Virus record (IMG/VR): IMGVR_UViG_2537562231_000018 | Length of the DNA: 24,218 nucleotides | Strand: one strand, 5' to 3' | Source: a virus | Lineage: Duplodnaviria > Heunggongvirae > Uroviricota > Caudoviricetes | Shown here: positions 7,428 through 23,256 of the stretch, piece by piece | Layout of the letters: every line of letters starts with the position of its first letter | How positions within the stretch are numbered: position 1 is the first letter of the stretch | Program-made: the position numbers and the translations under genes | The notes under the pieces: generated by a model | What the model was told of the DNA's origin: nothing | The model's input: only the letters and a program-made list of their open reading frames with translations | The model's database searches: none

Positions 7428-8248
7428 CTATCTGGTCACCTTTTTCAGTTGTTGTTCTGCCCATGCTTCTTCAATATCAAACTGCACCACCAGCGTATCG
7501 TAAAAACGTTTAACTGTTTTTTTCCATGTATCAAGAGATATGGCATCGGTTACATTACATATGGCATTAAATGCCTCCGTTGAAGGTAATCTTTCATAGC
7601 CACGACCACCACAACGCTGGCAGTCTCTGATAACAGGCATACCACGTTTTACCGACTCTTCACGATGAATGGCAACACCGCGCCCACGACAATCTTTACA
7701 GGCGGTGGAAACCTCCCCCTTCCCTCCACACTCCGGACAGGCAACTTTTACCACCTCCCTGACTTTTTCCATTCCTCCCAGTAAGACTGATACACGCCTT
7801 TTGTACACTTTGCCCATACTGGCGGCTTACCATCCGGATACTGAATCTTGTTTGTAAAAATCTCGCTTTCAATAAATTTTTTTCCGTGACAGCATGGGCA
7901 CTGTTTTTTGCTCGCCGCGCTCCGGGCATAATCCTCAAACGCATACGAAGCCATAATGCGCATCACTACCGGTTTTATTTCTGCCGGAAGTTTTCTTAAC
8001 GCTGCCACGCGATCACACCGACTGAGAGCGTATTCTGCCAGCAGTTCTGTTGCCCGCTCCCTGTCATTCATACTGATGCCCATTTTCCCAAGGAACGCAG
8101 AAAACCCCATCTCAGCCCGATTCTGTGTCATGCCCTGCGCTGCCATCACATCAGTGATACTCAGCGCATCTTTTGACGTTGAGGCCGATGCATCCGTCAG
8201 ACCCGGTGATTTTGGGGAATAGTATTTTGGTAAATCTTCCAGTTTCAT
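7428..8248 (-). CDS. Q: antitermination protein Q (lambda Q / QuuQ family), split into two overlapping frames by an apparent 1-bp frameshift
   Basis: ORF 7748..8248 (MKLEDLPKYYSPKSP..TDVMAAQGM..SYAFEDYARSAA..CPCCHGKK) aligns with the lambda Q N-terminus; ORF 7428..7817 (..CKDCRGRGVAIHREESVKRGMPVIRDCQRCGGRGYERLP..TWKKTVKRFYDTLVVQ..VTR) aligns with the lambda Q zinc finger and C-terminus. The frames differ by -1 and would join across the A5 run at about 7766..7770. Confidence 0.75.
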
Positions 8249-10121: not shown

Positions 10122-10277
10122 TTACTTCTCAGATTCGTAAGCTGTGAAGACAGCGACCTCCGTCTGGCCGGTTCGGATTCGTACCTCGCAGAGGTCTTTC
10201 CTCGTTACCAGTACCGTTACAACGACGGTAATACAGATGACGATCAGGGCGATTAGCATCGCCTTTTGCTGCTTCAT
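10122..10277 (-). CDS. hok: Hok/Gef-family type I toxin (HokD/RelF-like)
   Basis: MKQQKAMLIALIVICITVVVTVLVTRKDLCEVRIRTGQTEVAVFTAYESEK, 51 aa, near-identical in pattern to E. coli Hok/Gef proteins. The tracker ORF is extended upstream in frame to 10334. Confidence 0.85.
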   Translation of the reverse strand: MKQQKAMLIALIVICITVVVTVLVTRKDLCEVRIRTGQTEVAVFTAYESEK

Positions 10278-10325
10278 AGCCTGCTGCTCCTTGCCTTTCG
10301 GCGCGTAAGAGGCTAATCTAAGTGT

Positions 10326-10398
10326 GCAAGTCATAGATATGGCCTCAGATTAATGTTAAGCGTCCTGCAAGACGCATAATGTTAACTGGGGCTTTTCT
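10326..10398 (+). ncRNA. sok: candidate Sok antisense RNA (position and promoter inferred)
   Basis: Plus-strand promoter TTGCCT (10291..10296) -17 bp- TAATCT (10314..10319) faces away from hok and overlaps the hok leader; downstream hairpin GCGTCCTGCAAGACGC and a T-rich stretch. Exact ends not determinable by eye. Confidence 0.3.
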
Positions 10399-10527
10399 CT
10401 GTCTGCCTTACGTCGGCATGCCCGAGGCAGACAGCCTCAAGCACCCGCAGCAATTCTACTTAACTCTCGCTTTACCGCAAACCGTTTTACCCGATATGGG
10501 AATGCCCATATCGCAATGAATTCAGTT

Positions 10528-12532: not shown

Positions 12533-12629
12533 TTCACTACCGCCATTTGTAAGCGTCGTCTCAGCACCGTCTGGCAGATCCTGAAATTCCTGAGAGAATA
12601 GTGGACACCAAATATGGTGGACGCTATCC

Positions 12630-13034
12630 ATGAAATCATTAACCGCAGTGCGTAAAAAAAGCCCTAATTATCCCGTTGAGTTCAAAATCAAAATGGTTGA
12701 ACTCTCGCATCGACCAGAGATCTCCGTAGCGCAACTCGCTCGTGAGCATGGGATCAACGATAATTTGCTGTTCAAGTGGCGCCAGTACTGGCGCGAAGGA
12801 AAACTACGTCCTCCTTCAACAACAGAAAACAACGTGCCTGAGCTGCTCCCGATAACACTTGATGCCGAAGATGTTGTCCCTACAACCTCCCCCCGGTCAC
12901 AACCTGTAGCTGCTGCGACACCTGAATCACTCAATATCAGCTGTGAAGTGACGTTCCGGCACGGATCACTCCGTCTGAATGGTGCCATCAGCGAAAATAT
13001 CCTGAACCTGCTGATACGGGAGCTCAAACGTTGA
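12630..13034 (+). CDS. IS66-family accessory protein (orfA/TnpA)
   Basis: 134 aa; EFKIKMVELSHRPEISVAQLAREHGINDNLLFKWRQYW HTH region typical of IS66 orfA. Confidence 0.85.
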   Translation: MKSLTAVRKKSPNYPVEFKIKMVELSHRPEISVAQLAREHGINDNLLFKWRQYWREGKLRPPSTTENNVPELLPITLDAEDVVPTTSPRSQPVAAATPESLNISCEVTFRHGSLRLNGAISENILNLLIRELKR

Positions 13035-13378
13035 TCCCATTACCATCAGGGACAAAGATCTGGCTGGTCGCTGGCATCACCGATATGAGAAACGGCTTCA
13101 ACGGCCTGGCGGCAAAGGTGCAGACGACGCTGAAAGACGATCCGATGTCAGGTCACGTTTTTATCTTCCGTGGGCGTAATGGCAGTCAGGTAAAGCTCCT
13201 CTGGTCTACCGGCGATGGACTGTGTCTGCTGACCAAACGGCTGGAGCGCGGCCGCTTCGCCTGGCCGTCAGCCCGGGATGGCAAAGTGTTCCTCACACCG
13301 GCACAGCTGGCGATGCTGCTGGAAGGTATCGACTGGCGGCAGCCTAAAAGACTGCTTACGTCCCTGACTATGTTGTAA
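13031..13378 (+). CDS. IS66-family orfB (TnpB)
   Basis: 115 aa; KIWLVAGITDMRNGFNGLAAKV..HVFIFRGRNG..KLLWSTGDGLCLLTKRLE, the characteristic IS66 orfB pattern; ATGA overlap with orfA. Confidence 0.85.
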   Translation: MIPLPSGTKIWLVAGITDMRNGFNGLAAKVQTTLKDDPMSGHVFIFRGRNGSQVKLLWSTGDGLCLLTKRLERGRFAWPSARDGKVFLTPAQLAMLLEGIDWRQPKRLLTSLTML

Positions 13379-13426
13379 GCCTCTTTATCCTGGTCGACGC
13401 TGAATGAGCCTGGTAATATACCCGGT

Positions 13427-14965
13427 ATGAGCAGCTCACTTCCTGACGATATCAATGCACTGAAACGTCTCCTTGCCGAACAGGAGGCGCTGAACCGTGC
13501 CCTGCAGGAAAAGCTGAACGAGCGTGAACGCGAAATAGACCATCTGCAGGCACAGCTGGATAAGCTGCGCCGGATGAACTTCGGCAGCCGCTCGGAAAAA
13601 GTCTCCCGTCGTATCGCACAGATGGAAGCTGACCTGAAGGCACTTCAGAAAGAAAGTGATACCCTTACCGGTCGGGTTGACGACCCGGCCGTGCAGCGCC
13701 CGCTGCGTCAAACCCGCACCCGCAAACCGTTCCCCGAATCACTCCCCCGCGATGAAAAACGGCTGCTGCCGGCAGCGTCATGCTGCCCGGAATGTGGAGG
13801 CTCGCTGAGCTATCTGGGTGAGGATGCCGCCGAACAGCTGGAGCTGATGCGCAGCGCCTTCCGGGTTATCCGGACTGTACGTGAAAAGCATGCCTGTACT
13901 CAGTGCGATGCCATCGTGCAGGCCCCCGCGCCTTCACGGCCCATCGAGCGGGGTATCGCAGGACCGGGGCTGCTGGCCCGCGTGCTGATCTCAAAGTATG
14001 CAGAGCACACCCCGCTGTACCGCCAGTCTGAAATGTACGGCCGCCAGGGCGTGGAGCTGAGTCGTTCACTGCTGTCGGGCTGGGTGGATGCATGCTGCCG
14101 GCTACTGTCACCGCTGGAAGAAGCGCTTCAGGACTATGTGCTGACTGACGGTAAGCTCCATGCTGATGACACGCCTGTCCCGGTGCTGTTGCCAGGCAAT
14201 AAGAAAACGAAGACCGGGCGGTTATGGACCTACGTTCGTGACGACCGTAACGCCGGGTCAACGCTGGCGCCGGCGGTGTGGTTCGCTTACAGCCCGGACA
14301 GAAAAGGCATCCATCCGCAGACCCATCTTGCGGGGTTCAGTGGTGTACTGCAGGCGGATGCATACGCCGGGTTCAACGAGCTGTACCGGGATGGCCGGAT
14401 AACGGAAGCCGCTTGTTGGGCTCACGCCCGCCGTAAAATCCACGATGTGCACGTTCGCACCCCGTCAGCCCTGACGGAGGAAGCGCTGAAACGGATCGGC
14501 GAACTGTACGCCATCGAGGCAGAGATAAGGGGAATGACGGCGGAGCAGCGCCTTGCCGAACGTCAGTTGAAAACGAAACCGCTGCTGAAATCCCTGGAAA
14601 GCTGGCTGCGTGAAAAGATGAAAACCCTGTCGCGACACTCAGAACTGGCGAAAGCGTTCGCATACGCCCTGAACCAGTGGCCGGCGCTGACGTACTATGC
14701 AGATGATGGCTGGGCTGAGGCGGACAATAACATCGCTGAAAATGCGTTGCGGATGGTCAGTCTGGGCCGCAAAAACTACCTGTTCTTCGGTTCGGATCAT
14801 GGAGGAGAGCGGGGAGCGCTGCTGTACAGCCTGATCGGGACGTGCAAACTGAACGGAGTGGAGCCAGAAAGCTACCTCCGCTATGTCCTTGACGTCATAG
14901 CCGACTGGCCGATAAACCGGGTCGGCGAACTGCTCCCCTGGCGCGTAGCACTGCCGACTGAATAA
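13427..14965 (+). CDS. IS66-family transposase (orfC/TnpC), intact
   Basis: 512 aa; N-terminal coiled coil, CCPECGG..C.QC zinc motif, [27 protein letters not shown] and downstream catalytic region. Confidence 0.9.
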
Positions 14966-15087
14966 CACATCCCCGTCAATACGGTTCTTGCTGCACGCTT
15001 ACCGCCATTTCGAACGGCCTCCTGATGTTCTGAGGGTGCAGAAATCCCTCCGGTTAAGGATTAAATTTTTAACAGTGCTAAATTTAA

Positions 15088-18553: not shown

Positions 18554-18972
18554 ATGGACAAATATGAATTTAGACGACAGCAACTCATCAAAATTCGTGA
18601 TGAGAAATGCGATGGTAAAGCGGTTAACGTGGCCAGAAAGATCGGGCGCGAGCCTTCTTATGTATCAAGAATGTTGTACCCAGAGGGGAAAAAGGGAAAA
18701 AACGGATCGCTGATGATATGGTGGAGATTATCGAAGAGTCCTTTGGGTTACCCCGGGGATGGATGGATGGTATCGTTTCATCATCAACGAACACAGCCTC
18801 CAGTTATGAAACAAGGGTTCTAACGCCACGACAACGTATTTTTTTAGATCTCTTAGACGAACTGCCAGAAAGTGAAGCGGATAACTTATTAAAAACTCTT
18901 GAAGAGAAAAAACAGTATTACAATATGATCTACGAAGAAATCCGTAAAAAGAAAGCACAAAACGCATCATAG
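18554..18972 (+). CDS. RacR/cI-type repressor candidate, split by an apparent frameshift at the A6 run 18697..18702
   Basis: ORF 18554..18823 carries an N-terminal HTH (GKAVNVARKIGREPSYVSRML); ORF 18718..18972 continues in the +2 frame. One extra A in the A6 run would join them into a roughly 140-aa protein. The ATG has no SD and sits 7 nt after a TATTAT -10, so the mRNA would be leaderless like lambda cI. Confidence 0.5.
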
Positions 18973-19052: not shown

Positions 19053-19238
19053 TCCTTCTTTTCATACCAACCCACCCCGCCCCACAGAATGCAGGGCAAT
19101 ACTTCGAGTTACCAGGCAGTGGTCAGGGGTTAAGTAGCCAGCCCGAGGCGTAAGAACATGACGGCAGGGTTCAACTTTAATAACTATGCAGCAGGTTTTT
19201 GTTCCGCTACCCCGGCGTTAAGGGGAAATGAGGTCAGC

Positions 19239-19394
19239 ATGGATACTATCGATCTTGGCAACAACGAATCTCTGGTGTACGGCGTATTTCCAAACCAGGA
19301 CGGCACGTTCACCGCAATGACGTATACCAAAAGCAAAACGTTTAAAACCGAAAATGGTGCCCGTCGCTGGCTGGAAAGAAACTCAGGTGAGTGA
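19239..19394 (+). CDS. hypothetical small protein (51 aa; YdaF/YdaG-like by position)
   Basis: MDTIDLGNNESLVYGVFPNQDGTFTAMTYTKSKTFKTENGARRWLERNSGE with GAGGT SD; tracker ORF extends upstream to 19158. Confidence 0.4.
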   Translation: MDTIDLGNNESLVYGVFPNQDGTFTAMTYTKSKTFKTENGARRWLERNSGE

Positions 19395-19395
19395 T

Positions 19396-19524
19396 ATGGA
19401 TTTCGACACAATCATGGAAAAGGCTTACGAAGAATACTTCGAAGGCCTTGCCGAAGGCGAAGAAGCTCTCAGCTTCAGTGAGTTTAAACAGGCGCTTTCC
19501 AGTTCGGCAAAATCTAACGGCTGA
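19396..19524 (+). CDS. hypothetical small acidic protein (42 aa)
   Basis: MDFDTIMEKAYEEYFEGLAEGEEALSFSEFKQALSSSAKSNG; GGTGA SD; start 1 nt after the previous stop. The overlapping 69-aa GTG ORF 19391..19600 is in another frame and looks non-coding. Confidence 0.35.
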   Translation: MDFDTIMEKAYEEYFEGLAEGEEALSFSEFKQALSSSAKSNG

Positions 19525-19553: not shown

Positions 19554-19772
19554 ATGCAGAAACGAGAACCCGTCATCATCGCGCCAGACTATACCGATGA
19601 TGAACTTTATGAGTGGATGCGCCAGAAAATTAATGCAGCGCAGGATCTGAAATGGGCTAATGAAGCCAGGGCTAAGCAGGCTGAAAATCTGTCCGCTCTG
19701 GAGCAGGATATCACCAGGCTGGAAAAAGCAGCGGCATTAAGCATTGCCAGAATGATTACATACCCGCGTTAA
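19554..19772 (+). CDS. hypothetical small protein (72 aa)
   Basis: GAGGAA SD upstream of the ATG; charged helical composition; same size class as Kil-type proteins in Rac but not verified. Confidence 0.4.
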   Translation: MQKREPVIIAPDYTDDELYEWMRQKINAAQDLKWANEARAKQAENLSALEQDITRLEKAAALSIARMITYPR

Positions 19773-20174
19773 TAGCTAACCAACGAAGCTAAGGTTGGTA
19801 ATTAAGGAGTTCTCCACGGGTGAGGTGGAGTGCGTACGCCGGACACGGGTGAGCATCCGGCACTGACAGTTTACTGAAAGGATATTTCCATGAAAAGTCA
19901 GACCATAACGCGAAAGCGCACGGCGAGGTAGCTGGTTCATAGATAACCTGTCGTTAAATTTTCGTCGACCGTGCGCTTCCGGTTGTGGCACTCCGCGAAA
20001 TGGCGCGGCGGTAAGTATGGCGGGGTTATTCCTTCCCCGTTGAGGACATCGGGTTGTCAGGTTGACCATACGCTTAAGTGACAACCCCGCTGCAACGCCC
20101 TCTGTTATCAATTTTCTGGTGACGTTTGGCGGTATCAGTTTTACTCCGTGGCTGCTCTGCCGCCCTTTTTAAAG

Positions 20175-20322
20175 TGAATTTTGTGATGCGGTGAATGCGG
20201 CTCAGCGCACGCGGAACAGTTAAAACCAAAAACAGTGTTATGGGTGGATTCTCTGTATCCGGCGTTAATTGTTAACTGGTTAACGTCACCTGGAGGCACC
20301 AGGCACCGCATCACAAAATTCA
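20175..20322. repeat. 19-bp perfect inverted repeat (TGAATTTTGTGATGCGGTG at 20175..20193; CACCGCATCACAAAATTCA at 20304..20322) enclosing 110 bp
   Basis: Exact reverse-complement arms read directly from the sequence; right arm ends 17 nt upstream of the ATG at 20340; enclosed segment contains two GTTAAC palindromes. Confidence 0.6.
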
Positions 20323-20339
20323 TTGTTGAGGACGCGATA

Positions 20340-20441
20340 ATGGAAACGTTATTACCAAACGTTAATACGTCTGAAGGTTGTTTTGAAATTGGTGTCACTA
20401 TCAGTAACCCTGTATTTACTGAAGATGCCATTAACAAGAGA
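20340..20441 (+). pseudogene. 5' portion (34 codons) of a small gene interrupted by IS66 copy 2; 3' portion at 22982..23068
   Basis: METLLPNVNTSEGCFEIGVTISNPVFTEDAINKR then the IS; joining across the IS and one copy of the target duplication restores a 62-codon ORF whose TGA overlaps the ATG of the downstream gene at 23065. Confidence 0.45.
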
Positions 20442-20526
20442 GTAAGCGTAAACTGACCGCCGTATGTAGCCATCAGACGAGAATTGGTAACTTAGACGCC
20501 CATCTGATATAGACGGACATCTAAGT

Positions 20527-20952
20527 ATGGAATTACAGGACTGGCGAAAAGAACCTCGTAAAAACTATTCGAATGAATTCAAACTTCGTATGGTGGAACT
20601 GGCATCACAACCTGGAGCTTGTGTTGCACAGATTGCACGTGAAAATGGCGTCAATGATAATGTTATTTTCAAATGGCTCAGGCTCTGGCAGAACGAAGGG
20701 CGTGTTTCGCGGCGTCTTCCGGTAACGACCTCTTCTGACACTGGCGTTGAATTATTACCTGTAGAAATAACGCCGGATGAGCAGAAAGAACCTGTGGCGG
20801 CCATTGCGCCGTCTTTATCCACTTCCACTCAGACCAGAGTCAGTGCCAGTTCCTGCAAGGTGGAATTCCGTCACGGTAACATGACGCTGGAAAATCCATC
20901 GCCAGAGCTGCTCACAGTGTTGATCCGTGAACTGACCGGGAGGGGAAGATGA
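20527..20952 (+). CDS. IS66-family accessory protein (orfA), copy 2
   Basis: 141 aa; EFKLRMVELASQPGACVAQIARENGVNDNVIFKWLRLW. Confidence 0.85.
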   Translation: MELQDWRKEPRKNYSNEFKLRMVELASQPGACVAQIARENGVNDNVIFKWLRLWQNEGRVSRRLPVTTSSDTGVELLPVEITPDEQKEPVAAIAPSLSTSTQTRVSASSCKVEFRHGNMTLENPSPELLTVLIRELTGRGR

Positions 20953-21299
20953 TCTCACTCCCATCAGGTACCCGTATCTGGCTCGTTGCCGGCGTTACCG
21001 ATATGCGTAAATCCTTCAACGGACTGGGAGAACAGGTACAACATGTGCTGAATGATAATCCCTTCTCCGGTCACCTGTTTATCTTCCGTGGCCGACGGGG
21101 TGACACCGTCAAAATTCTTTGGGCTGATGCTGATGGTCTGTGCCTGTTCACCAAACGCCTGGAGGAAGGCCAGTTTATCTGGCCTGCGGTACGTGACGGC
21201 AAGGTATCCATTACCCGCTCGCAACTGGCAATGCTCCTCGATAAGCTGGACTGGCGTCAGCCAAAAACTTCCAGCCGTAACTCACTGACAATGTTGTAA
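20949..21299 (+). CDS. IS66-family orfB (TnpB), copy 2
   Basis: 116 aa; RIWLVAGVTDMRKSFNGLGEQV..HLFIFRGRRGDTVKILWADADGLCLFTKRLE. Confidence 0.85.
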   Translation: MISLPSGTRIWLVAGVTDMRKSFNGLGEQVQHVLNDNPFSGHLFIFRGRRGDTVKILWADADGLCLFTKRLEEGQFIWPAVRDGKVSITRSQLAMLLDKLDWRQPKTSSRNSLTML

Positions 21300-21329
21300 A
21301 AAACTCCTGACCGCATTATAAAAACGGTC

Positions 21330-22943
21330 ATGAGTCAGAAATACCTCATTCGCATCGCAGAGCTGGAAAGGTTGCTCTCTGAGCAGGCTGAAGCCCTCCG
21401 TCAGAAAGACCAGCAACTGAGTCTGGTTGAAGAGACGGAAGCCTTCCTGCGCTCTGCACTGACACGTGCCGAAGAAAAGATCGAAGAAGATGAACGGGAA
21501 ATAGAACATCTGCGGGCTCAGATAGAAAAACTGCGCCGGATGCTGTTCGGTACCCGTTCTGAAAAACTGCGTCGTGAAGTTGAACTGGCTGAGGCTCTGC
21601 TGAAACAACGTGAACAGGACAGCGATCGTTAACAGTGGGCGGGAAGACGATCCTCAGGTTCCCCGCCAGTTGCGACAGTCGCGCCATCGTCGTCCGTTAC
21701 CGGCACACCTTCCCCGTGAAATACACCGCCTGGAGCCAGAAGAAAGCTGTTGCCCGGAGTGTGGCGGTGAGCTGGATTATCTGGGGGAAGTCAGCGCAGA
21801 ACAACTGGAACTGGTGAGCAGCGCCCTAAAAGTGATCCGCACAGAACGGGTAAAAAAAGCCTGTACAAAATGTGACTGCATCGTTGAAGCACCGGCACCA
21901 TCCCGCCCGATAGAGCGTGGTATCGCGGGCCCGGATTACTTGCCCGCGTGTTAACGGGAAAATACTGCGAACATCTGCCACTGTATCGTCAGAGTGAAAT
22001 CTTTGCCCGCCAGGGTGTCGAACTGAGCCGGGCCTTACTCTCCAACTGGGTTGACGCGTGCTGCCAGTTAATGACACCGGTGAATGATGCCCTGTACCGT
22101 TATGTAATGAACACCCGCAAGGTTCACACTGATGACACACCGGTAAAGGTACTGGCACCGGGTCAGAAAAAGGCGAAAACAGGGCGTATCTGGACGTATG
22201 TCCGGGATGATCGCAATGTGGGTTCGTCATCTCCTCCAGCGGTCTGGTTCGCGTACTCGCCGAACCGGCAGGGGAAACACCCGGAGCAACACCTCCGCCC
22301 CTTCCGGGGTATCCTGCAGGCGGATGCGTTCACAGGTTACGACAGGTTGTTCAGTGCAGAACGTGAAGGTGGTGCACTGACAGAAGTTGCGTGCTGGGCC
22401 CATGCCCGGCGAAAAATCCACGATGTATACATCAGCAGCAAAAGTGCGACGGCAGAAGAAGCCCTGAAGCGAATCAGTGAACTGTACGCCATCGAGGATG
22501 AAATACGGGGATTACCGGAGTCAGAGCGTCTTGCCGTCAGGCAGCAGCGAAGCAAAGTGTTACTGACGTCGCTGCATGAATGGATGGTGGAGAAGAATGG
22601 TACGCTGTCGAAAAAATCCAGACTGGGCGAAGCGTTCAGCTATGTACTGAATCAGTGGGATGCCCTCTGTTATTACAGTGATGACGGTCTGGCGGAGGCG
22701 GATAATAATGCTGCGGAAAGAGCGCTTCGTGCAGTCTGTCTAGGAAAGAAAAACTTTATGTTCTTTGGCAGCGATCACGGCGGCGAGCGTGGAGCACTGT
22801 TGTACGGGCTGATCGGCACCTGCCGTCTGAACGGTATCGATCCGGAAGCGTATCTGCGCCATATCCTGAGCGTACTGCCGGAATGGCCTTCCAACCGAGT
22901 TGACGAACTCCTGCCATGGAACGTAGTACTCACCAATAAATAA
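21330..22943 (+). pseudogene. IS66-family transposase (orfC) broken into three ORFs by two frameshifts
   Basis: ORFs 21330..21632, 21610..21954 and 21948..22943 together align along the copy-1 TnpC; the second break coincides with a G-run (GGCCCGGATTAC where copy 1 has the equivalent of GGCCCGGGATTAC). Confidence 0.8.
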
Positions 22944-23064
22944 GCGTCAATACGGTGCTCCGTTGACGCTTACACAAGAGAAAACACGAACGGGAGTTAT
23001 TAAATAAAATATGCATTCTTTCAATGCTGGCCCGTTTACGTCCGATACAAAAAGGATGCTGGCA

Positions 23065-23256
23065 ATGAATACAGCATTTGCACTTGTTCTGACAGTTTTT
23101 CTTGTTTCCGGAGAGCCAGTTGATATTGCAGTCAGTGTTCACAGGACAATGCAGGAGTGTATGACTGCAGCAACCGAACAGAAAATTCCCGGTAACTGTT
23201 ACCCGGTCGATAAAGTTATTCACCAGGATAATATCGAAATCCCGGCAGGTCTTTAA
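23065..23256 (+). CDS. hypothetical small secreted protein (63 aa, signal peptide)
   Basis: MNTAFALVLTVFLVSGEPVDIAVSV.. with AAGGA SD; tracker ORF starts further upstream at 23011. Confidence 0.45.
   Translation: MNTAFALVLTVFLVSGEPVDIAVSVHRTMQECMTAATEQKIPGNCYPVDKVIHQDNIEIPAGL

Follow-up and report, generated by a model that had tools for sequence, protein, structure and literature searches.

A copy of the insertion sequence ISEc23 has almost certainly transposed into dicB at codon 34/35, duplicating the target sequence ACAAGAGA. The event is best read as an ordinary IS inactivation of a toxic gene carried by a Qin/Rac-like lambdoid E. coli prophage. The window analyzed here is a stretch of 24,218 nt (IMG/VR record IMGVR_UViG_2537562231_000018), and the genes and the element described below all lie on its plus strand. 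What remains of DicB is a 38-aa stub; ydfD now lies 2.5 kb away from the rest of the dicBF operon, and its start no longer overlaps the dicB stop. Neither the DicF sRNA gene nor the ydfD ORF is damaged. No evidence contradicting this structural reading of the insertion was met. As a toxic prophage gene silenced by a common insertion sequence, the case carries little weight on its own.

The inserted element and the alleles of its target site

The element, a member of the IS66 family, spans positions 20442–22973, a length of 2,532 bp, and reads in the direction of the dicBF operon. Along that whole length it matches, at 99.5% identity, the NZ_OZ039398.1 copy that carries the annotation "IS66-like element ISEc23 family"; annotated ISEc23 copies on E. 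coli chromosomes and many on plasmids share 99.3–99.5% nucleotide identity with it, and an ISEc43-annotated copy shares 93%. Its left end reads GTAAGCGTAAAC... and its right end ...GTTGACGCTTAC; the terminal inverted repeats are imperfect, begin GTAAGCG, and match each other at 19 of their first 24 nt. An identical direct repeat of 8 bp, ACAAGAGA, flanks the element on the left (20434–20441) and on the right (22974–22981). The chance of an exact 8-mer at both boundaries is about 1 in 65,536, and duplications of 8 bp are also found at most of the other ISEc23 copies examined. The boundaries, the flanking repeat, and the 99.5% identity to ISEc23 bear out the initial annotation, which had assigned the element to the IS66 family and recognized its target duplication.

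Within the element, tnpA (20527–20952), encoding the helix-turn-helix IS66 accessory protein, is intact at 141 aa and matches Pfam HTH_Tnp_1 and NCBIfam IS66 TnpA, and tnpB (IS66 Orf2; 20949–21299) is intact at 116 aa and matches Pfam TnpB_IS66 at 125 bits and NCBIfam IS66_TnpB. The DDE transposase gene tnpC (21330–22943; 537 aa when intact) is split by two frameshifts. Pfam domains follow one another along the IS as HTH_Tnp_1, TnpB_IS66, LZ_Tnp_IS66, zf-IS66, DDE_Tnp_IS66, and DDE_Tnp_IS66_C, and the NCBIfam matches comprise IS66 TnpA, TnpB, and transposase. The copy therefore resembles the known ISEc23 in its tnpA-tnpB-tnpC order, its 8-bp duplication, and its GTAAGCG... terminal repeats. 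It differs from ISEc23 in the two single-base tnpC frameshifts and in a tnpC patch of ~100 bp (21798–21900) with eight synonymous third-codon-position substitutions that match ISEc43-like copies.

The uninterrupted allele, which the initial annotation had suggested seeking in other genomes, exists. A complete E. coli genome, NZ_CP141736.1, has an uninterrupted locus that matches the 431-nt restored junction at 100% identity, and a restored version of 961 nt matches plasmid-collection records annotated with dicB, DUF1482, and exonuclease genes at 98.0% over 959 nt. An uninterrupted dicB-ydfD copy is present in 4,046 of the 5,426 complete E. coli genomes. Searches with the two actual IS junctions found this insertion in 0 of these 5,426 genomes. 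The junction of the window recurs in at least six further public records, assemblies or metagenomes (GCA_003651425.1, GCA_001285465.1, GCA_905133375.1, GCA_000703585.1, and two ENA metagenomes), with left flanks 99.6–100% identical to the window, and gene calls on at least 10 further public contigs include the 38-aa dicB-IS fusion ORF. Since independent assemblies share the junction, the dicB::ISEc23 allele is inherited. A search of viral contigs for dicB/ISEc23 junctions in either orientation found none, and in a collection of species-representative genomes the left end of the IS matched just two irrelevant contigs.

The interrupted gene and the dicBF operon

The 5' fragment of dicB (codons 1–34; 20340–20441) reads on into the IS and yields the 38-aa product METLL...INKR+VSVN*, that is, 34 native residues followed by VSVN. 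The 3' fragment (codons 35–62 and the TGA stop; 22982–23068) is annotated as a dicB fragment in an equivalent locus. In silico excision, in which 20340–20441 is joined to 22982–23068, gives a 62-codon ORF, METLL...GCWQ*, that matches the DicB models of Pfam (PF05358; 127.4 bits, cut-off 27, positions 1–62 of 62) and NCBIfam (NF049927; 132.7 bits, cut-off 100). Judged from these matches the restored ORF is full-length DicB, and, as dicB does, it follows ydfABC and dicF and overlaps ydfD.

The adjoining ydfD (23065–23256) is intact, with 63 codons and a 63-aa product that bears the RefSeq name "lysis protein YdfD" and matches Pfam PF07358 (DUF1482) at 92 bits (cut-off 25; positions 4–61) and phrog_1092 at 126 bits. 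The TGA of restored dicB (23066–23068) overlaps the ATG of ydfD (23065–23067) in a 4-nt ATGA, and the reference loci show the identical overlap; the 3' fragment of dicB still contains a Shine-Dalgarno-like AGGA located 8 nt before the ydfD start. Excision thus recovers the split 62-codon gene, overlapping the 63-codon gene that follows, as it was initially described. The accompanying label of a two-gene module of unknown function needs correction to the well-studied pair dicB (PF05358, NF049927) and ydfD (DUF1482), both of which have been experimentally characterized (PMC6832061, PMC8835842, PMC4967827). The 63-aa ORF had been read as a secreted protein, and in the literature YdfD is described as a lysis protein that binds IspG (PMC8835842). 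The module was also drawn too narrowly, as the two genes are part of the longer dicBF operon, ydfABC-dicF-dicB-ydfD-ydfE.

In the window this operon comprises ydfA (19158–19394; a gene call with Pfam DUF1391), ydfB (19396–19524) and ydfC (19554–19772), the latter two named from the annotation of syntenic loci, and the DicF sRNA gene (20114–20165). DicF is intact, matching Rfam RF00039 at 75 bits (gathering score 48) over model positions 1–52 of 52, with a terminator-like hairpin at 20148–20163. A plasmid leading-region single-strand promoter (Frpo/ssi), considered for ~19980–20340, was rejected when a similarity search led to the dicBF operon of lambdoid prophages and Rfam placed DicF there. 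Downstream lies a ydfE-like prophage exonuclease gene (23350–24218; YdfE_N/YdfE_C; phrog_2082 exonuclease; 823 aa in references), which is frameshifted by a GG to GGG change at 24037 and continues past the end of the window. Annotated syntenic loci show the order ydfA-ydfB-ydfC-dicB-DUF1482-exonuclease.

The structure of the dicBF operon and its repression by DicA have been described (PMC10448788), and the window has the same gene order and content as the operon in the Qin cryptic prophage of E. coli K-12 (ydfABC-dicF-dicB-ydfDE). The element that carries dicB here is a Qin/Rac-like lambdoid prophage of E. coli. It differs from Qin in its interrupted dicB, and in an immunity region that is Rac-like, with YdaS/YdaT homologues and a 139-aa regulator that has no HTH_3 Pfam match in place of dicA/dicC. 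It is also far more complete, with Nu1, lysis genes, Q, and RusA.

In K-12, DicB is a MinC-dependent inhibitor of cell division that also inhibits ManYZ, through which it acts in phage exclusion by blocking phage entry (PMC6832061, PMC4967827). DicB variants lacking 12, 16, or 20 C-terminal residues (deltaC12, deltaC16, and deltaC20) allow colony growth, whereas the full-length protein does not (PMC4967827). Because deletions of just 12–20 C-terminal residues already lose activity, the 38-aa stub would have lost the lethal division-inhibiting activity of DicB, and exclusion of lambda-like phages via ManYZ is probably lost too. The lineage is thus predicted to lack both the filamentation and the phage resistance that depend on DicB, the latter directed at lambda-like phages entering via ManYZ. 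Polarity probably weakens ydfD expression driven by the operon promoter. No predicted terminator of note was found inside the IS, and therefore read-through to ydfD is possible. The K-12 YdfD lysis protein binds the MEP-pathway enzyme IspG, which it is reported to inhibit, and its lysis is prevented by co-expressed DicB, encoded in the same operon by a partly overlapping gene (PMC8835842). The lineage would therefore carry a lysis gene without its usual directly upstream dicB, whose co-expressed product prevents that lysis.

Transposase lesions and the mobility of the copy

Relative to intact ISEc23, tnpC has an additional A at 21631, where a TAA stop results, and lacks a C at 21929 (CCCC to CCC). 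The 537-codon transposase ORF accordingly lies in three pieces (21330–21632, 21610–21954, and 21948–22943), and the claim that the reading frame is broken twice is confirmed. The further step taken in the initial annotation, that this copy is probably immobile, is less secure. Should both tnpC frameshifts prove genuine, this IS copy would be non-autonomous at best. Both ends of the IS are intact, and the lesions are single-base changes private to one draft assembly that carries several further private frameshifts; if the lesions are sequencing errors, the IS would be fully functional.

The evidence is about evenly balanced on whether the frameshifts in tnpC, the repressor-like gene, the exonuclease gene, Q, and Rz are errors of draft sequencing or assembly, with an IS that is really intact and mobile. 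All of these frameshifts are single-base indels and most alter the length of a base run (C4 to C3 at 21929, G2 to G3 at 24037, A7 to A6 at 18696, and T6 to T5 at 7763), but the A inserted at 21631 lies outside any long homopolymer. Among indexed public gene calls, the doubly frameshifted middle tnpC ORF and the Q fragments occur in this draft assembly only. Two lineage mates (L010 and L011) have the repressor gene with its A7 run intact, yet the A6 variant is also present in one independent run, ERR4562137, and real frameshifts do build up in cryptic prophages. A metagenome scaffold with the same left junction (L012) encodes an intact 537-aa TnpC; this scaffold could represent several IS copies collapsed into one consensus, and on the right its flank is unlike that of the window.

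Repeated disruption of dicB

A single genome among the 5,426 complete ones, E. coli isolate 30348_2#256 (NZ_OZ039398.1), carries ISEc23 at the dicB site of the window, in the opposite orientation; the orientation seen in the window occurs in 0 of them. The insertion in this isolate is at the identical nucleotide position after codon 34, has an 8-bp duplication, and splits dicB into two fragments annotated as pseudogenes in RefSeq. It differs from the window in the orientation of the IS, in its dicB allele (MKTLL...), in its duplication (ACAAAAGA), and in its intact tnpC, and it is therefore an independent insertion event. Other disruptions of dicB include IS1 ends after codon 25/26 in two loci, an IS21-family element after codon 27, an ISEc23-type end sequence after codon 38 (P0015), and several frameshift alleles. 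Two further matches that end near the site (H192 and H193) looked at first like insertions and are in fact intact dicB alleles whose 3' half is divergent. We only tentatively suggest that dicB is a recurrent, convergent target of IS inactivation in E. coli prophages, whether from selection that disarms the DicB toxin with DicF and ydfD kept, from a structural hotspot, or from both. If a census supports it, the repeated hits could illustrate, on a small scale, how insertion sequences drive the domestication of prophages.

It is conceivable, though rather doubtful, that the insertion was selected and not just tolerated, with a derepressed operon making dicB toxic and IS knock-outs being repeatedly favored in a convergent "domestication" of prophages. 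The independent disruptions present in public data are in line with this: the insertions and frameshifts listed above, together with the reversed ISEc23 copy that occupies the very site used in the window, in another dicB allele. No consensus emerged from ISEc23 target duplications sampled without bias, so no obvious motif explains the re-use of the exact site. On the other hand, selection alone leaves that exact-nucleotide re-use unexplained; 4,046 of the 5,426 complete genomes retain an uninterrupted dicB-ydfD pair, and just one has ISEc23 at the same site. With billions of sequences in the protein database, some disrupted alleles would be expected for any prophage gene, and the tally of disruptions given here covers dicB alone.

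An equally unlikely alternative is that the position in dicB is a local hotspot for ISEc23 through DNA structure or AT-rich composition and not through a motif, in which case the same-site pair would have no selective meaning. One nucleotide position has been used twice, in opposite orientations and in alleles ~4% diverged, and a third ISEc23-type insertion lies ~12 nt away (P0015). Immediately to the left of the duplication, some other copies have flanks similar to ...GCCAT(T/C)A, but those copies were chosen by similarity to the query, and the 11 target duplications of the unbiased sample share no sequence. IS1 and the IS21-family element fall within the same ~40-bp stretch, which argues for a regional property or for selection, and not for ISEc23 specifically. 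A target consensus for ISEc23 was itself discarded, as the likeness among the first four flanks came from similarity-ranked matches and was gone in the unbiased sample. Loss of the repressor through the frameshift at 18696 was considered as a first step that then selected for the dicB knock-out, and was rejected: the repressor gene is intact in lineage mates that share this dicB::ISEc23 junction, and the 18696 frameshift, if real, therefore came later than the insertion.

An ISEc23 copy within the dicBF operon of a lambdoid prophage

The IS element lies at 20442-22973 (2,532 bp), beginning with GTAAGCGTAAACTGACC and ending with GGTGCTCCGTTGACGCTTAC. Its ends form imperfect inverted repeats in which 19 of the first 24 nt match, and the 8-bp sequence ACAAGAGA borders it on either side as an exact direct repeat, at 20434-20441 and 22974-22981. 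The genes are ordered tnpA (20527-20952, HTH_Tnp_1), tnpB (20949-21299, TnpB_IS66), and a transposase gene split among three ORFs at 21330-21632 (LZ_Tnp_IS66), 21610-21954 (zf-IS66), and 21948-22943 (DDE_Tnp_IS66 and DDE_Tnp_IS66_C). The element shares 99.5% identity over its whole length with a copy annotated as "IS66-like element ISEc23 family" and 99.3-99.5% with many plasmid copies, and is therefore ISEc23.

When the IS is taken out in silico together with one of the two direct repeats, joining 20340-20441 to 22982-23068, a 62-codon ORF is restored (METLLPNVNTSEGCFEIGVTISNPVFTEDAINKRKHERELLNKICILSMLARLRPIQKGCWQ). The TGA that ends it overlaps the start ATG of the next ORF, which has 63 codons and lies at 23065-23256. 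The initial annotation was accurate in every structural detail, including the duplication, the restored 62-codon ORF, and the stop/start overlap. Its description of the two genes as a module of unknown function must be replaced, as Pfam, NCBIfam, RefSeq, and Rfam place them as dicB and ydfD in the known dicBF operon. The restored ORF is a full-length DicB: it covers positions 1-62 of 62 in Pfam PF05358 (127 bits) and scores 132.7 bits (cut-off 100) with the NCBIfam model "cell division inhibition protein DicB." The 63-codon ORF is a DUF1482 gene (92 bits) with the RefSeq name "lysis protein YdfD." The DicF sRNA, at 20114-20165, scores 75 bits in Rfam (gathering score 48), and its 3' end carries a terminator-like hairpin. 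Upstream of dicB are a DUF1391 gene (ydfA), ydfB, and ydfC, and downstream is a large prophage exonuclease gene. The same operon is present in the Qin prophage of E. coli K-12, where ydfABC-dicF-dicB-ydfDE is under DicA repression (PMC10448788); the interrupted locus is dicBF. A plasmid leading-region element was also considered for the region upstream of dicB and was ruled out by similarity search, which returned records annotated with dicB, DUF1482, and exonuclease; the 961-nt restored version is 98.0% identical to such records over 959 nt.

Outside this operon, the window consists of a lambdoid prophage. It carries packaging and lysis genes (Nu1, PerC, Rz/Rz1, and lysozyme), a SASA-family esterase, the Q antiterminator and RusA for late-gene control and recombination, DUF968, hok/sok, and DUF977, and an immunity region with YdaT and YdaS homologues and a regulator in the CI position. 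Two further RNAs lie on the minus strand: a sok antitoxin RNA of a hokD-type locus (10272-10446, Rfam 114.8 bits) and the sRNA STnc100 (6487-6659, Rfam 100.8 bits). A second IS66-family element at 12549-15002 (2,454 bp) has intact tnpA, tnpB, and tnpC (134, 115, and 512 aa) and an 8-bp duplication, CGCCATTT, on both sides. Where the two elements align, its identity to ISEc23 is about 71-76%, and it adjoins a DUF7167 gene or sits in the start of that gene.

Inheritance and consequences of the interrupted allele

The uninterrupted allele exists, and the reading of an insertion therefore stands: E. coli 2023CK-01509 (NZ_CP141736.1) carries the restored 431-nt dicB-ydfD sequence, uninterrupted, with 100% identity, and among 5,426 complete E. 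coli genomes 4,046 have an uninterrupted copy (at least 80% of the 431 nt covered). None of these 5,426 genomes has the dicB::ISEc23 junction of the window, which is the entire contig ADUM01000122.1 of assembly GCA_000184765.2. The junction creates a 38-aa fusion ORF (DicB residues 1-34 followed by VSVN), and public gene calls show this ORF in at least 10 other contigs. Four additional NCBI assemblies and two ENA metagenomes supply these contigs, whose left flanks are 99.6-100% identical to the window. This recurrence shows that the allele is real, not an assembly artefact, and that it is inherited in a lineage or in a circulating prophage. One ENA metagenome scaffold (L012, ERZ28565922, 3192-3807) shares the left junction, and the sequence to the right of its IS is unlike the window and lacks the target duplication; the scaffold is either an assembly chimera joined through the repeat or the product of a rearrangement between IS copies. 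The finding is real, structurally well described, and ordinary: insertion of a common IS has inactivated a well-studied toxin gene of the prophage within a known operon.

The IS cuts DicB after residue 34. Full-length DicB does not permit colony growth, whereas C-terminal deletions of 12, 16, or 20 residues do, as does a construct with the first 26 residues alone (PMC4967827); on this basis, DicB shortened by 28 residues should no longer impose its lethal block on division. DicB also protects against lambda and phage 434 via ManYZ, dependent on its interaction with MinC (PMC6832061), and this protection is presumably lost as well. DicF is intact, and so is the ydfD ORF, which keeps an AGGA motif of its own 8 nt upstream. 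The stop/start overlap is gone, and 2.5 kb now separate ydfD from the upstream part of the operon; a pattern scan found no strong terminator inside the IS. Overexpressed YdfD causes lysis that co-expressed DicB prevents (PMC8835842), and ydfD is left here without this upstream partner.

Frameshifts in the transposase and elsewhere

Relative to intact ISEc23, the transposase gene is indeed broken in two places: an additional A at 21631 changes TAC to TAA, and the CCCC run at 21929 is one C short. Between them, eight substitutions relative to consensus ISEc23 cluster at 21798-21900. Each falls at a third codon position, and seven of the eight match ISEc43-like copies (loci L004, L028, and L032); this stretch is a natural recombinant patch bracketed by the two frameshifts. 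Other private single-base frameshifts of the assembly affect the Q antiterminator gene (T6 to T5 at 7763, splitting it into two ORFs), Rz (a missing G at 2280 that fuses it to Rz1), the exonuclease gene (GG to GGG at 24037, truncating the ORF at 251 aa), and the gene for the regulator in the CI/DicA position (18554-18972, 139 aa; phrog_5736, transcriptional regulator), in which A7 has become A6 in the A-run at 18696-18701.

The changes point either to decay of the prophage or to base-run sequencing errors of the draft, and the two are about equally likely. Errors would fit the doubly frameshifted middle transposase ORF and the T5 Q variant, both unique to this assembly among indexed public assemblies, as well as the A7 regulator gene in the lineage mates L010 and L011 and the intact 537-aa transposase in L012. 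Error alone, however, sits poorly with the A6 regulator ORF, which is also present in one independent run (ERR4562137). If real, the regulator frameshift at 18696 would be later than the dicB insertion, because lineage mates carry the insertion with an intact regulator gene; one may speculate that the dicB knock-out could make a later loss of repression more tolerable. The earlier suggestion that this ISEc23 copy is probably immobile is weakened accordingly: the frameshifts are present in the sequence but may be errors, and in either case the copy retains intact ends, through which it could in principle be mobilised in trans by other copies of ISEc23. Contigs of several unrelated draft assemblies (L017-L020) end exactly 301 nt into tnpC, at locus position 10301, which equals window position 21630 and coincides with the extra-A site; this end point may mark where differences between co-resident IS66-type copies begin.

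Repeated disruption of dicB

Repeated same-site targeting of dicB is the one unexpected observation and the sole lead of note. In E. coli isolate 30348_2#256 (NZ_OZ039398.1; L001, 5303-7834), ISEc23 occupies exactly the same dicB position as in the window (20441/20442), but in the opposite orientation, with the duplication ACAAAAGA, an intact transposase gene, and a dicB allele (MKTLL...) about 4% diverged. This insertion is an independent event, since an in-place flip of the IS is an implausible recombination outcome. Public protein and contig data hold further disruptions: IS1 ends (GGTAATGCTGCCAACTTACTGAT...) after codon 25/26 (L052 and L053), an IS21-family element with istA/istB after codon 27 (L051), the right end of an ISEc23-type element, translated in a different frame, after codon 38 (protein entry P0015), and several frameshift alleles (P0001-P0003, P0030, P0075, and P0093). 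Together, the insertions indicate that dicB has been hit repeatedly within about 40 bp, which could mean that selection acts against this toxic gene, that the site is a locally preferred target, or simply that a very large number of genomes has been sequenced. Among 11 other ISEc23 target duplications, sampled without bias, no target consensus emerged, and the resemblance among the first four flanks viewed, absent from that sample, was a selection effect. Two other loci (L046 and L047, dicB at 4055-4243 in each) have an intact dicB that resembles the window allele up to about codon 35 and diverges beyond it, and a mosaic boundary between dicB alleles therefore falls approximately at the IS insertion site.
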